DNA of 64,000 nucleotides from Alphaproteobacteria bacterium (GCA_963555825.3 CAUVXB020000001.1:960001-1024000), one strand, 5' to 3'. Shown: positions 7,760-37,014, numbered from the stretch's first letter. Notes: generated by a model from the sequence alone, not told the origin. Program-made: numbers and translations.

Positions 7760-8960
7760 ATGCATTCGAAGTCCGTTTCGCGTTTTGGCGGTTTGCGAGA
7801 TCGCCGTTATGGCGCTGTGGTTTTCGGCGTCCGCCGTCATACCTTCGATTTCCGCGGAATACGCGTTGACGCCAACTCAGGCGTCCTTGTTTACCAGCAG
7901 CGTCCAGATCGGGTTCGTCGTCGGCACCTTGATCAGCGCTCTCCTTGGATTGGCGGATCGCATCGATCCGCGACGGTTTTTCATGGCCTCGGCGATCATC
8001 GCCGCGGCCGCCAACGCGGTCATCCTGTTGGTCGACCCGACCTCGTTCACGATGATCGCGATGCGCTTCGTCACCGGCGCCTGCATGGCGGGCGTCTATC
8101 CGGTCGGCATGAAGATGGCCAGCACCTGGGCCAAGGGCGATCTCGGGCTCCTGGTCGCCATTCTGGTCGGCGCCCTGACCCTGGGCTCGGCGTCGCCGCA
8201 TCTGTTCAACGCGTTGGGTGGCGTCGATTGGCGGTTCACCATCGCGACGGGATCGATCGTCGCGCTCGCCGCCGCGCTGCTGATCAACCTGGTGTCCTTG
8301 GGTCCCAACCTCGGCAAGGCGCCGCCGATCGATCCGCGGCTCCTGCTCCGGGCCTTCAAGTCGCGCTCGATGCGGCTCGCCAATTTCGGCTATCTCGGCC
8401 ACATGTGGGAACTCTATGCCATGTGGGCTTGGCTGGGGGTCTTCCTGGACGCGAGCTTCCGCTTTTCGGGCGGCGCCGATCCCGCTTTCTGGGCGCGCAT
8501 CGCGACCTTCCTCGCGATCGGCGTCGGTGGCTTGGCGGGCTGTCTGGCGGGCGGCTACTTCGCCGACCGGCTCGGCCGGACGACGATAACCATGGCAGCG
8601 ATGACCGTAAGCGGGGCCTGCGCCGTCATCGTCGGGATGATGTTCGGCGCGGCGCCGATTCTGCTGACCGTCGTATGCATCGTTTGGGGCGTTTCGATCG
8701 TCGCCGATTCGGCCCAGTTCTCCGCCTCCATCGCCGAGCTATCCGAACCACAGCTGGTCGGCACCATGCTGACCGTTCAGACCTCGGCAGGGTTTCTGCT
8801 GACCTTGATCACGATCCACCTGATGCCCGTGCTGGTGGCGCACACGGGGTGGTCCGTGGCGTTCGCGACGCTCGCTTTGGGACCGGTGTTCGGCGTCTGG
8901 TCGATGGGCCGGTTGCGGCGTCACCCCGACGCCATCAAGATGGCCGGCGGGCGGCGGTAG
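7760..8960 (+). CDS. MFS transporter (likely ATG at 7760 is out of frame; in-frame ATG at 7809)
   Basis: About 12 TM; LADRIDPRR, GYLGHMWELYAMW, VADSAQFSA motifs. Confidence 0.8.
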
Positions 8961-9109
8961 AGTCTTTGTTCCGGTCACCTTTGGTGACCTGCGCTCAATC
9001 GCCGCGCATACTTCCGCCGAGCGGTCGGCGGCCCCCCTCTTGTTGGAATCAAGGTTGGCGCGGGCTGGAAGATTCCGATCGAGTTCAATTTCGATCGCAC
9101 AATTCTCTA
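8958..9109 (+). repeat. Structured intergenic repeat, copy A
   Basis: Core CCGGTCA..TGACCTGCGCTCAATCGCCGCGCAT..GCCGA.CGGTCGGCGGCCC..GCGGGCT..CCGATCGA shared with 16.5, 22.9 and 36.9 kb; TAGAG...CTCTA ends. Confidence 0.9.
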
Positions 9110-9131
9110 ACCCATGGGGCGGCGCAGCGTT

Positions 9132-9650
9132 CTACGATCCGTCGGCTTGGTTGACAAGCGTGATCTTGGGATCGCGCGCCAGCGTCTGGTACACGACGCA
9201 ATAGCGCTCGGTCAGCTTGAACAAAGTGGCGAGCTGCTCTTCGCTCGCAGTGGTATCGAGGTCGAAGCGCAGGCGGATGTCGGTGAAGCCGACCGCGGCG
9301 TCGCGGTCGACGCCCAGCGTGCCGCGGAAATCGAGATCGCCCTCGGCGTGCACCGTGCCGCCCGCGACCGGCACATCGAGTGCTGTCGCCACGGCGCGCA
9401 GCGTCACGCCCGCGCAGGCCGCGAGTGCCTCGAGCAGCATGTCGCCCGAGCAGGCCGACAGGCCGTCGCCGCCAGTCGCGGGGTGCAGCCCGGCCTCGAC
9501 GATCGCCTTGCCCGTGTCGACCGAGCAGGTAATGCCTTCCTCGCCAAGGGTACCGTCGGCCTTGAGCGTAATGACCGCCGATTGCGGTGATTCCTTGTAT
9601 TGATCTTTGAACGGCGCTTGCAGCGCCCGGAGTTCTGCCGCGTCCATCAC
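9132..9650 (-). CDS. OsmC family protein
   Basis: GLHPATGGDG, CSGDMLLEALAACAG, LTERYCVV motifs. Confidence 0.88.
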   Translation of the reverse strand: MMDAAELRALQAPFKDQYKESPQSAVITLKADGTLGEEGITCSVDTGKAIVEAGLHPATGGDGLSACSGDMLLEALAACAGVTLRAVATALDVPVAGGTVHAEGDLDFRGTLGVDRDAAVGFTDIRLRFDLDTTASEEQLATLFKLTERYCVVYQTLARDPKITLVNQADGS

Positions 9651-9710
9651 GATCTCCTCACATGCCTGGGCGTGAAGATATCAATTTCGGCACGGCAACG
9701 ATAGCGCCGC

Positions 9711-34037: not shown

Positions 34038-35432
34038 ATGACCGACGTCGTTACACGATTCGCTCCCTCACCGACTGGCTTCCTTCACATCGGCGGTGCC
34101 CGCACGGCGCTGTTCAACTGGCTGTATGCGCGCCGTCATGGCGGCCGATTCCGCCTGCGCATCGAAGACACCGACCGGGCGCGCTCGAACGAGCAAGCGA
34201 TCGACGCCATCTTCGACGGTCTGACATGGCTCGGCCTCGATTGGGACGACGACGTGGTCTACCAATCCCAGCGTGTTCAGCGTCACGTCGCGATCGCCCG
34301 GCAATTGCTCGCCGAGGGCAAGGCGTACCACTGTTATTGCACGCCCGATGAGCTTGCCGTTATGCGCGAGGAACGCATGGCGGCCGGTGAAAAGACGCGC
34401 TACGACCGGCGCTGTCGCGATCCCGCGCCGGATATGACGATACCGGCCGATGTCCCGCCGGTCGTTCGCTTCAAGGCGCCGATGAACGGTGCGACGGTCC
34501 TGGACGACCGGATCCAGGGCGACGTCAGGTTCGAGAACGACCAGTTCGACGACATCGTCATCCTGCGTGGCGACGGCACGCCGACGTATATGCTCGCGGT
34601 CGTCGTCGACGACCACGACATGGGCGTGAGCCACGTGGTTCGCGGCGCCGATCACCTGACCAACGCGTTCCAGCACCGCTTCATCTTCGAGGCACTCGGC
34701 TGGGACGTCCCGGTGTTCGGCCATGTACCGTTGATCCACGGGGCTGACGGGGCCAAGCTGTCGAAGCGGCACGGCGCGCTCGGCGTCGCGGCCTATCGCG
34801 ATATGGGCTATCTCCCTGAAGCCATGCGGAACTATCTGCTCCGCCTGGGCTGGAGTCACGGCGATGACGAAATGATCTCGACCGCCCAAGCGATCGAATG
34901 GTTCGACTTCGACGCCATCGGCCGCTCCGCCGCCCGCTTTGATTTCGACAAGCTGAACAACGTCAACGGCCACTATCTGCGTAAAGCCGACGACGCCCGC
35001 TTGGTCGAACTCGTCGCCGCGCATCGCGGGCAGACGCTGAACGACGACGTCAGGGCACGCCTTCAGCGCGGCATGCCAGGCTTGAAAAATCGCGCGAAAA
35101 CACTCGTGGAACTCTCTGATAATGCGTCGTTTTATCTGTCAGAAAGACCGATAGAAATGGCGCCGAAAGCAGCAGCCCTGCTGAACCGGGACGACGGTTC
35201 TATCCTATCGAGTGTCGCGGCCCATCTCGCCGACGACGGCGATTGGTCGGCCGAGTCGCTCGAAGCGGCGGTGCGTGATTTCACCGAGCGCGAAGGCATC
35301 AAATTGGGCGCGATCGCTCAGCCGTTGCGCGCTGCGCTGACGGGCGCCACGGTATCGCCCCCGGTCTTCGAGGTGATGGCGGCACTTGGCCGCGCCGAAA
35401 CGCTCGCCCGCATCGACGACGCCGCCGGCTGA
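34038..35432 (+). CDS. gltX: Glutamate--tRNA ligase
   Basis: [26 protein letters not shown]. Confidence 0.95.
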
Positions 35433-35518
35433 TTTGTGCTATTTTTCGTTCGGCCCTATTTTGTCGGTAGAAATAATCGCCCGACGAGGCGTGTAGAAAG
35501 TTATCTGGAGGGACTGCC

Positions 35519-36856
35519 ATGGCGGATACCATCAAGCCAAAGAAAAAACTCACGTCGACCGCGAGCGTGTCGTTCACCGACGGCAAGTCGAACTCCGGTA
35601 CGGCCATCGATTTCGACGTTATCGACGGGACGATGGGCCCGGGCGTTATCGACGTCAGCAAGCTCTACCCCAAGACCGGCTACTTCACCTATGACCCGGG
35701 GTTCATGGCGACCGCGAGCTGCCAATCGAAAATTACCTTCATCGATGGCGAGAAGGGCGTTCTGCTCCATCGGGGCTATCCGATCGAGGCGCTCGCCGAG
35801 CAGAGCACCTTCATCGAGGTCTGTTACCTGCTGCTGTTCGGCGAACTGCCGTCGAAGAAACAGTATCGCAAATTCGAGAACGACGTGACCATGCACACCA
35901 TGGTGCACGAACAGCTTATCTTCCTGTTCCGTGGCTTCCGGCGTGACGCGCACCCCATGGCGATCATGGTCGGCGTCGTCGGCGCGCTGTCGGCCTTCTA
36001 TCACGACGCGCTCGACCTCACCGATCCGCAACACCGCAAGATAGCCTCCTACCGGCTGATCGCCAAAGTACCGACGATCGCTGCGATGGCCTTCAAGTTC
36101 TCGGTCGGCCAGCCCTTCATTTACCCGCGCAACGACCTGAACTACGTCGAGAATTTTCTGCACATGATGTTCGCGGTACCGACCGAGGAATACCGGGTCA
36201 ATCCGGTGTTCGCGCGCGCGCTCGATCGCATTTTCATCCTGCACGCCGACCACGAGCAGAACGCGTCGACGTCGACCGTGCGTCTGGCTGGCTCGTCGGG
36301 CGCCAACCCATATGCCTGCATCGCCGCCGGTATCGCCTGTCTGTGGGGCCCGGCTCACGGCGGTGCGAACGAGGCGGTGATCACCATGCTCAGCGAGATC
36401 GGCACGGCCGATCGCATCCCGGAATTCATCGCCCGGGCCAAGGACAAGAGCGACCCCTTCCGGCTGATGGGTTTCGGCCACCGGATTTACAAGAACTACG
36501 ACCCGCGCGCCCAGGTTCTGCGCGAGACCTGCCGCGAGGTTCTCGCCGAGATTGGCCAGACCGACGAGCCATTGCTCGAAATCGCCGTCGAGCTCGAGCG
36601 AATCGCGCTCGAGGACGAGTATTTCGTCAAGCGCAAGCTTTACCCGAACGTCGACTTCTATTCGGGCATTATCCTGCGCGCCATGGGCATCCCGCCACAT
36701 CTGTTCACGGTGATTTTCGCGGTCGCGCGCACGGTCGGCTGGGTCGCTCAGTGGAACGAGATGATCGACGACCCATCGCAGAAAATCGGCCGCCCGCGCC
36801 AACTCTACACCGGCTATGGCCCGCGCGATTACGTGCCGCTGGCGAATCGCCGCTAA
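35519..36856 (+). CDS. gltA: Citrate synthase type II
   Basis: [34 protein letters not shown]. Confidence 0.97.
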
Positions 36857-36877
36857 CGACGTTTCGCCGTCGATGCC

Positions 36878-37014
36878 ATAGCCCATAATCCGATCGATCG
36901 GAATTGATCGGTTTATGCCAGCCCGCGACCGCGGGCCGCCGACCGTTCGGCGGAAGCATGCGCGGCGATTGAGCGCAGGTCATCTTTACGACGTAAAGAT
37001 GACCGCACAAATAT
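36878..37014 (-). repeat. Structured intergenic repeat, copy D
   Basis: Reverse complement, near-identical to copy B. Confidence 0.9.

Follow-up and report, generated by a model that had tools for sequence, protein, structure and literature searches.

What kind of element is the hairpin-rich sequence that recurs between genes in a 64,000-nucleotide stretch of the genome of an Alphaproteobacteria bacterium (GCA_963555825.3, CAUVXB020000001.1:960001-1024000; hereafter, the window)? The earlier note on this DNA described four copies of an intergenic element made of five consecutive hairpins (H1–H5) and proposed that it is either a non-autonomous mobile element or a structured RNA or single-stranded DNA (ssDNA) motif selected for its fold. 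We find that pairing in the hairpins is kept by double substitutions and that no functional strand is indicated. [quoted passage not shown] The repeat, whose carriers are uncultured alphaproteobacteria, looks like an undescribed member of a familiar class of miniature mobile repeats and no new kind of system.

The window contains exactly four copies, A to D, placed by a covariance model and by whole-length alignment at positions 8958–9111(+), 16492–16634(+), 22814–23023(-), and 36877–37019(-). Applied to the whole window with its filters switched off, the covariance model (R1) gives 155.1 bits for B, 144 for D, 107.6 for A, and 107.1 for C; the next-best matches, at 30 and 25 bits, fall on the reverse strands of copies already counted, the remainder reach at most 14 bits, and the scan found no fifth or weaker copy in the window. 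A 21-mer, CTGCGCTCAATCGCCGCGCAT, is identical in all four, with 0.01 matches expected even when up to three mismatches are allowed, and none of 100 dinucleotide-preserving shuffles reaches four. Alignment, exact 21-mer, and model scores together confirm the four copies first claimed. Fragments of the element are not scattered between them: in the window, solo termini (TAGAGCATT with at most one mismatch) number three against 3.8 expected, and the arm motif of H5 matches inside the four copies and at one weak site (55605). Partial matches to the covariance model, in the window and in the outside loci described below, fall only on the reverse strands of known copies.

The family extends beyond this genome. 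A genome collection scanned with the 19-nt core of H2 returned at least 33 loci. Seven of the 33 listed carry the whole element (L005, L009, L015, L017, L018, L023, and L024), while 26 match the 19-mer alone, lie in unrelated phyla, and are chance matches. L023 has three copies (L023a, L023b, and L023c) in 10.4 kb, giving nine non-window copies in five metagenome-assembled genomes (MAGs) among the matches listed and a total of n = 13 for the family analyzed here. L005 and L009 belong to one alphaproteobacterial MAG, L017 and L018 to a second, and L024, at 52 bits, is diverged. The exact 19-mer is missing from two of the L023 copies, the sole ones not picked by the search pattern. The densities observed are four copies per 64 kb in the window and three per 10 kb at L023. 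It is spread over at least six genomes in unrelated gene contexts, is non-coding, and measures about 133–210 bp, copy C (210 bp) exceeding 200 bp solely through a tandem module. These features bear out the description of a dispersed, hairpin-rich repeat.

Searches for a known counterpart were negative within their scope. Rfam at gathering thresholds returned a single tRNA for the whole window and nothing at the repeats; at permissive thresholds, copy A had no match and the best match of copy D reached 17 bits, against a gathering score of 45. Hence, the Rfam check that the earlier note recommended yields no family match. A blastn search in ‘distant’ mode with copy D found no match in a plasmid collection, a result that holds for plasmids only, and one translated frame of copy D gave no candidate among database proteins of 33–105 aa, an outcome that carries no information on abundance. 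Literature searches brought up general papers on MITEs and REP elements, the review of Delihas (2008), and a survey of stem-loops; the motif string of the repeat is absent from the papers searched. The host belongs to a poorly sampled lineage, as judged from a neighboring protein whose nearest relative, among the matches listed and besides a 99% twin, is 67% identical, and from the few names that the listed matches bear, most of which are MAG labels (‘Alphaproteobacteria bacterium’, for example). Between the window and the MAG loci that carry the element there is no orthologue in common from which protein divergence could be read.

The five hairpins fold as first described and follow the same order in all copies. 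In copy B, on the + strand, H1 spans 16507..16533 (GGTCATCTTTAC-GCC-GTAAAGATGACC); H2, the most conserved block, 16534..16552 (TGCGC-TCAATCGCC-GCGCA); H3, 16560..16573 (GCCGA-ACGG-TCGGC); H4, in its short form, 16574..16591 (GGCCCGC-AGTC-GCGGGCT); and H5, a long and variable terminal palindrome, 16592..16629. Across the family, H2, H3, and the base of H4 are best conserved, and H1 and H5 are long and variable. Three further parts are optional: the tip of H1, missing in A and C; H2b, a hairpin of zero to three units between H2 and H3 (CCAATCTT-loop-AAGACTGG), present in L005, L017, L018, and L023c, and in three units in C; and H4b, closely similar to H2b and placed inside H4, present in A, C, L015, L018, L009, and L005. 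The H2b array of copy C, at 22911..22971 on the - strand, consists of three tandem 20-nt units (period 20, 3.0 copies, 97% matches). These modules combine independently among copies. The two subtypes proposed for the window, A/C and B/D, do differ in having a short or long H1 and a long or short H4, but they are two among several mosaics.

The loops behave in two different ways. That of H2 is non-palindromic, identical in 12 of the 13 copies, and never inverted. Its invariance, stressed in the earlier note, survives weakly: seven of the nine non-window copies were found by a pattern containing the loop, and of the two copies not so selected, one keeps it and the other (L023c) carries a T-to-A change. 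The loops of the optional modules invert. The H2b loop GTGGGAT of L023c is the exact reverse complement of ATCCCAC in C, and the H4b loop TTGGGA of L018 is the exact reverse complement of TCCCAA in C, in both cases with unchanged stems (window 22911–22971; L023 7414–7580; L018 235–413). Inversions this small are what the dynamics of DNA hairpins or cruciforms would be expected to produce. With its flanks, the H2b loop may also bear a loose likeness to a DnaA box. From the sequences we also weighed a kissing contact of the H2 loop with an H5 arm and dropped it, as it competes with the H5 stem and the loop variant of L023c has no matching change.

RNAalifold recovers the five hairpins, with a double change in 14 of 34 pairs. 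In an explicit seven-helix structure of 12 copies and 57 pairs, 88.2% of cells are paired, versus 32–42% in a slid control in which partners are shifted by 1–3 columns. In the same 12 copies, double changes occur in 17 pairs, as opposed to 7.1 +/- 2.0 in shuffled alignments, and the covariation score is 0.144 versus 0.080, neither value being attained in 500 shuffles. Overall, 0/500 shuffles reach the observed value on four of five measures; the fifth, ‘further pair types’, is unexceptional (57/500). When L024 is included, double changes are found at 27 of 44 pairs and 0/500 shuffles match any of the five measures, in a 13-copy alignment (A4) that was fitted to the model and is biased towards it. 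Double substitutions preserve pairing in every hairpin. For instance, in the 13-copy alignment the H1 stem has double changes at 10 of its 12 pairs; H2 reads TGCGT...ACGCG in L023b; an A-U pair of H3 becomes C-G in three copies, and H3 reads GCCGC...GCGGC in L023b and L005; and H4 reads GCCTGC...GCAGGC in L023a and GCGCGC...GCGCGC in L023c. The compensatory changes claimed at the outset could not be judged from the four near-identical cores of the window but are clear once copies from other genomes are added, and the covariation asked for as a check is significant.

Strong pairing conservation with double changes is also what a functional RNA made from one strand would display, i.e., a 3'-untranslated region (3'-UTR) stabilizer or processing signal, a small RNA, or a bidirectional terminator, with selection acting on the fold and on the H2 loop. 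This explanation gains from predicted folds far more stable than those of shuffled sequences; from a nearly invariant H2 loop that is never inverted; from one G.U pair at the base of H4 that is invariant in 13/13 copies; and from the gene 3' end that flanks 11 of the 13 copies on at least one side. Yet nothing singles out a strand. In B, D, and L023b, both strands fold with similar energies (z of -3.6 to -7.8). Stem mismatches amount to 32 G.T versus 25 A.C, 12 of the G.T coming from the one invariant pair at the H4 base; without it, the count is 20 versus 25, so that wobble mismatches favor no strand. The module loops invert freely, tandem copies lie twice sense and twice antisense, one copy sits between divergent genes in a promoter region, and Rfam has no match at gathering or permissive thresholds. 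Neither in copies A and D nor in their flanks is there a promoter-like site, and no hairpin followed by a U-tract involves H1–H5 of these two copies on either strand; the terminator-like match near A (9229–9248) lies outside the copy, and that near D (37005–37024) straddles its left end. The bidirectional terminator suggested in the earlier note therefore finds no intrinsic-terminator signature at H1–H5 of A and D. Neither strand is favored as the folding or functional strand, and we regard a one-strand RNA as an unlikely account of the family. A role exerted from both strands between convergent genes may exist and would overlap with the mobile repeat that we favor.

The earlier note held that the repeat occurs only between convergent genes, which is true of all four window copies but not of the family: of 13 copies, seven are convergent, four tandem (two sense, two antisense), one divergent, and one undetermined. 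Eleven of the 13 border a gene 3' end on one side or on both. The convergent excess has P = 0.024 against an expectation of 25%; convergent sites are thus enriched, not required. In the window, a Pfam-based annotation gives ~8 convergent junctions among ~55, of which 4/8 are occupied, and the chance of all four copies being convergent is (8/55)^4 = 4.5e-4. Outside, three copies (L023a, L005, and L018) are convergent. Of the others, L023c separates ubiE from ubiB and is antisense to the two genes; L023b, also antisense, is found downstream of the gene for an enoyl-CoA hydratase, at a distance of ~540 bp upstream of rhodanese-dnaA; L017 and L024 have tandem neighbors and a sense orientation; L009 has YCII and creatininase genes diverging from it, and so lies in a promoter region; and L015 adjoins the 5' end of a ChaC-like gene. 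An orientation bias across copies, which the earlier note made a test of its reading, is present only in part, and orientation relative to transcription is not consistent. Orientation on the chromosome is likewise mixed, with A and B on the + strand and C and D on the - strand within 28 kb, and + + - within 5 kb at L023; the GC skew of the window is too weak to fix a replichore. At L023, positions 1598–3616 hold dnaA and the rhodanese gene, and the three repeat copies follow within 6 kb downstream.

The better-preserved copies read C-TA-GAGCAT...ATGCTC-TA-G (L023b, L015, and L009; partly L005, A, and C). Four copies, L015, L009, L005, and L023b, have a clear inverted repeat, GAGCA(T)...(A)TGCTC; A and C retain part of it, and B, D, L023a, L018, and L017 lack it. 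Among 12 copies, the left GAGCA is present in 4, the left TA in 6, the right TA in 8, both TAs in 4 (L023b, L015, L009, and A), and at least one TA in 10. In H5, the 3' arm shares nucleotides with the right half of the inverted repeat, and the 5' arm is similar to the left end of the element. The TAGAG...CTCTA termini reported for copy A are real and prove to be a family feature; the likeness drawn to TA-flanked palindromic repeats was apt, as the best-preserved copies end in TA followed by GAGCAT and in ATGCTC followed by TA. A TA duplication is compatible with all the better-preserved copies; a 4-bp CTAG duplication was also considered and is at odds with copy A (GTAG.../...CTAA).

Most striking among the regularities of the family is the coincidence of these termini with stop codons. 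By our reading of the loci, the stop of a neighboring gene falls exactly on a terminal TA position in 8 of the 13 copies: A-left (TAG), C-right (TAG), D-left (TGA), L023b, L023c (TAA), L005, L017, and L018. In two more, B and L023a, the neighbor's stop lies inside H5, and L009, L015, and L024 have neither arrangement. Three window copies had been said to start at a stop codon; three do have a stop on a terminal TA, but with a different placement, at the left of A, the right of C, and the left of D. The TAA stop ascribed to copy B belongs to an open reading frame (ORF), 15441–16496, that has low third-position GC and no Pfam match. TA is scarce in this DNA, at 15.5/kb in the window versus 29.7/kb expected, i.e., half, and CTAG is roughly tenfold rarer than expected (21 observed, 204 expected) and is found mostly at ORF ends. 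The first letter of the element is G and its last is C, so that once placed in the TA of such a stop, whether TAG or TAA, it recreates TAG from either side.

Together, these observations suggest how such a repeat might spread. Copies would be mobilized by a transposase supplied in trans that duplicates its TA target, as enzymes of the IS630/Tc1-mariner type do. In a genome of 65% G+C, where TA and CTAG are scarce and CTAG lies mostly at gene ends, the target would often be a TAG or TAA stop, and insertion into its TA would rebuild TAG for a gene arriving from either side and be harmless. The coincidence with stop codons and the excess at gene 3' ends, above all between convergent pairs, would follow because stops are the available and harmless TA targets. 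The hairpins act like DNA palindromes and favor neither strand. Transcribed in 3' UTRs from either side, their stem-loops, very stable at a predicted -63 to -79 kcal/mol, could block 3' exonucleases without being canonical intrinsic terminators. Repetitive extragenic palindromic (REP) sequences and BIMEs act as barriers of this kind to 3' exonucleases. The near-invariant, non-palindromic H2 loop would most simply be a sequence-specific protein contact, for the mobilizing enzyme or for a host factor.

Mobility could also be of another type. In a REP/BIME- or PATE-like scheme, the element would be moved as ssDNA by an HUH tyrosine transposase of the RAYT or IS200/IS605 type, which would read the subterminal hairpins (H1 on the left side, H5 on the other) and, without duplicating the site, integrate 3' of a short target whose last letters are TA. 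The termini do not disfavor this scheme: left flank and right element end both finish in (C)TA, and a target equal to the right end fits as well as a TA duplication. A long hairpin near each end and the BIME-like mosaic make-up also agree with it, as do the complementary changes that preserve the hairpins, since Nunvar et al. (2010, PMC2817692) report that the palindromy of REPs is kept by complementary mutations. However, the GT(A/G)G head, a REP hallmark in the same source, precedes none of the hairpins; H1 and H5 are dissimilar in sequence; G.T and A.C mismatches are balanced; and no Y1 transposase family is present among the 68 window ORFs scanned against Pfam. Moreover, orientation is mixed within 28 kb of the window and 5 kb of L023, which is unexpected of strand-specific insertion on one replichore, although the skew leaves the replichore unfixed. 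We therefore consider movement as ssDNA improbable, on a par with the one-strand RNA.

The TA-flanked mobile repeat has several observations to contend with. Mobility and the TA duplication are inferred from the copies themselves. No transposase with matching ends was found in the window, where the ends of the IS630-family insertion sequence (IS; 61984–63157) and of the IS1595-family IS (20211–21315) are unrelated to those of the repeat. The terminal inverted repeat has 58% of its cells paired and no covariation, and the copies are not A+T-rich, with a G+C content of 56–62% (65% in L024) versus 65.5% for the window. Conservation is lowest at the termini and highest in the core, opposite to what a typical young MITE shows; this suggests a constraint on the core that a mobile repeat leaves unexplained. 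The sample is small (n = 13), and seven of the nine non-window copies were chosen by a pattern inside H2. Finally, the covariation shuffles ignore relatedness among copies, and the structure was derived from the same sequences; double changes in close palindromes can also arise without selection, by templated (quasi-palindrome) mutation.

Two further explanations bear on the core. In the first, the repeat is a dispersed DNA site for a host protein related to the nucleoid, to replication, or to methylation, which would recognize hairpins or cruciforms, much as IHF or gyrase bind BIMEs, or as with the GANTC sites of CIR elements. A core more conserved than the termini and a non-palindromic, near-invariant H2 loop fit such a site, and so does GANTC, which is 2.5x denser in the copies (4.8/kb) than in the window (1.9/kb) and which 7 of the 13 copies have within or next to the H5 loop and 8 have somewhere. 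On the other hand, GANTC is absent from 5 of the 13, no known binding consensus was matched in the tests made here, and the TA and inverted-repeat termini and the stop-codon coincidence are left unexplained. A host-protein site, which is compatible with a mobile origin, would at best add to it, and we hold it very unlikely as the explanation in its own right. In the second, the H2–H4 core, with its near-invariant loop of fixed orientation, is the recognition module of an undescribed mobilization or host system that seeks stop codons, and not passive cargo. The element would insert at TAG or TAA and restore a stop for either strand, cruciform dynamics at the DNA level would swap and flip the modules, and the process would be hairpin-guided, perhaps by a class of enzyme not yet linked to such repeats. 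To this we likewise give little credence.

The element can be set beside the described families. In the account of Delihas (2008, PMC2229807), bacterial MITEs are shorter than 200 bp and have terminal inverted repeats (TIRs), 5'-TA-3' termini, a target-site duplication, and transcripts with stable stem-loops. The 13 copies (133–210 bp) resemble MITEs in small size, lack of coding capacity, copy number, and unrelated contexts, but not in A+T richness, and no IS with matching ends was found among the ISs of the window. In mode of action, the closest relatives that this source describes are Correia/NEMIS of Neisseria and RUP of Streptococcus pneumoniae, as judged from TA at their ends, their small size, the existence of variants of different length, transcripts with stem-loops, and, for RUP, a link to IS630. 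Correia elements are ~100–155 bp, non-coding, and multi-copy, with TA termini and size variants that differ by an internal block; one variant has an internal protein-binding motif, their stem-loops are co-transcribed, and no cognate transposase is known (PMC2229807). Their 24-bp TIRs are well conserved and paired end to end, and the elements are A+T-rich (PMC2229807). Here, in contrast, the TIR is ~6–9 nt and often eroded, five to seven local hairpins take the place of end-to-end pairing, and the G+C content is 56–62%. RUP, linked to IS630-Spn1 through its TIRs and TA targets (PMC2229807), is similarly a small intergenic repeat inserted at TA, and an IS630-family IS is also present in the window; unlike RUP, whose TIRs match its IS and which is not known to carry an internal functional motif, the repeat has ends unrelated to those of that IS.

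Other families share its architecture. With REPs and BIMEs, as characterized by Nunvar et al. (PMC2817692), the repeat has in common an extragenic mosaic of palindromic units and complementary mutations. It lacks their combination of GT(A/G)G head and 20–40-nt imperfect palindrome, GTAG occurring only at the left end of copy A; there is no rayt gene among the 68 window ORFs scanned against Pfam; and five different hairpins in fixed order replace the alternating copies of one palindrome seen in BIMEs. CIR elements of Caulobacter and Brucella are, like the repeat, alphaproteobacterial and shared across species, with TA termini lacking a strong TIR, separate hairpin arms, and GANTC at a terminal loop, to be compared with GANTC in or beside the H5 loop in 7/13 copies (PMC2229807). 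However, CIR is ~110 bp and is built of two arms and a linker, with GANTC as a defining feature (PMC2229807), while the repeat has five to seven hairpins in about 133–210 bp and can dispense with GANTC. The comparison with CIR, Bru-RS, and RIME was made by description. RIME, an intergenic palindrome mosaic of rhizobia and thus alphaproteobacterial, and BOX of S. pneumoniae, a modular repeat with a variable number of an internal unit that recalls the three H2b units of copy C, serve as leads only.

The individual copies of the window differ in modules and in surroundings. Copy A (8958..9111, +) has a short H1, no H2b, and a long H4 with H4b, and ends in TAGAG...CTCTA. Its left terminal TAG is the stop codon (8958–8960) of an MFS transporter gene, and an OsmC gene (9132–9650, -) lies on its other side. 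Two OsmC-like genes on the - strand, 6900–7472 and 9132–9650, flank this transporter gene.

Copy B (16492..16634, +) has a long H1, no H2b, and a short H4. Its right neighbor, on the - strand, encodes a membrane spermidine-synthase-like protein of ~790 aa with its TGA stop at 16596–16598, inside H5. The copy itself encodes the last ~11 codons (APKASSNRSESVG) and the stop of this protein (16596–16634). This element-encoded tail recurs in a protein on a different contig that is 99% identical, and more distant homologues have unrelated tails of varying length. The C-terminal tails of homologues were considered as a proxy for the empty site of copy B; the 41 inspected of 120 listed vary in length and sequence and are not decisive. 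To the left, the likely real neighbor, a fragment (15985–16392, +) with good codon-position GC, ends ~100 nt upstream; judged by eye, it resembles the C-terminus of a pyridoxal phosphate-dependent dehydratase. Between 14994 and 16454, the coding signal switches frame and strand several times, an AhpC/TSA domain lies at ~15500–15840 (-), and a 2OG-Fe(II) oxygenase is encoded at 14822–15643 (-); this region may consist of gene remnants.

Copy C (22814..23023, -) has a short H1, three tandem H2b units, and a long H4. The CTAG at its right end (22815–22818) contains the TAG stop of a + strand ORF, 21526–22818, and a polysaccharide deacetylase gene, with its stop at 23032–23034, lies upstream on the - strand. 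The ORF encodes 430 aa without a Pfam match and belongs to a region of low third-position G+C (19900–22818), which looks like recently acquired DNA whose 430-aa ORF copy C abuts at the stop codon. The IS1595-family IS (20211–21315) is in the same region, with its transposase at 20283–21302 and perfect 15-nt inverted repeats (CTTGCCTATCCGGTT). Copy D (36877..37019, -) has, like B, a long H1, no H2b, and a short H4. It lies between the genes for citrate synthase (35519–36856, +) and LpxB (37016–38428, -), and in the alignment the TGA stop of LpxB stands in the columns where other copies have their terminal TAG.

The second IS of the window splits an arginase-family gene (61580–63998) into an N-terminal half (63129–63998, -; Pfam profile positions 1–151) and a C-terminal half (61580–62053, -; profile positions 153–277). 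The insert of ~1.17 kb is an IS630-family IS with an HTH_29/32/33 ORF (62060-650) and a DDE_3 ORF (62557–63141), joined across an A8 run that resembles a frameshift site, and with inverted repeats at 61973–62008 and 63133–63168. It is bracketed by TA (61984-5 and 63156-7). A plain TA duplication would put the arginase halves out of frame; the frame is kept if 3 bp, TGA, were duplicated or if nothing was. In 32 end-to-end comparisons between ISs and repeats, most had p > 0.1 and the best reached p = 0.02, uncorrected. The IS630-family IS was accordingly rejected as a partner of the repeat on end similarity.

What, then, would the repeat mean for the genomes that carry it? The pile-up of such repeats between convergent genes is an old observation. 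If the TA-flanked reading is true, the family would be a clean case of a TA-seeking miniature repeat channeled onto stop codons in a G+C-rich genome, where its G...C ends would render insertion harmless for the genes on both sides, and it would give a mechanistic reason for that pile-up. The assortment of modules, the exact loop inversions, and a core conserved over its termini would make it a useful case for weighing selection against templated mutation. In practice, the covariance model could serve to mask the repeats when genomes of this poorly sampled lineage of alphaproteobacteria are annotated, and to flag C-terminal extensions made by the element, as in copy B. The finding is statistically solid and opens no new kind of biology; it would add a member to the miniature mobile repeats of bacteria.

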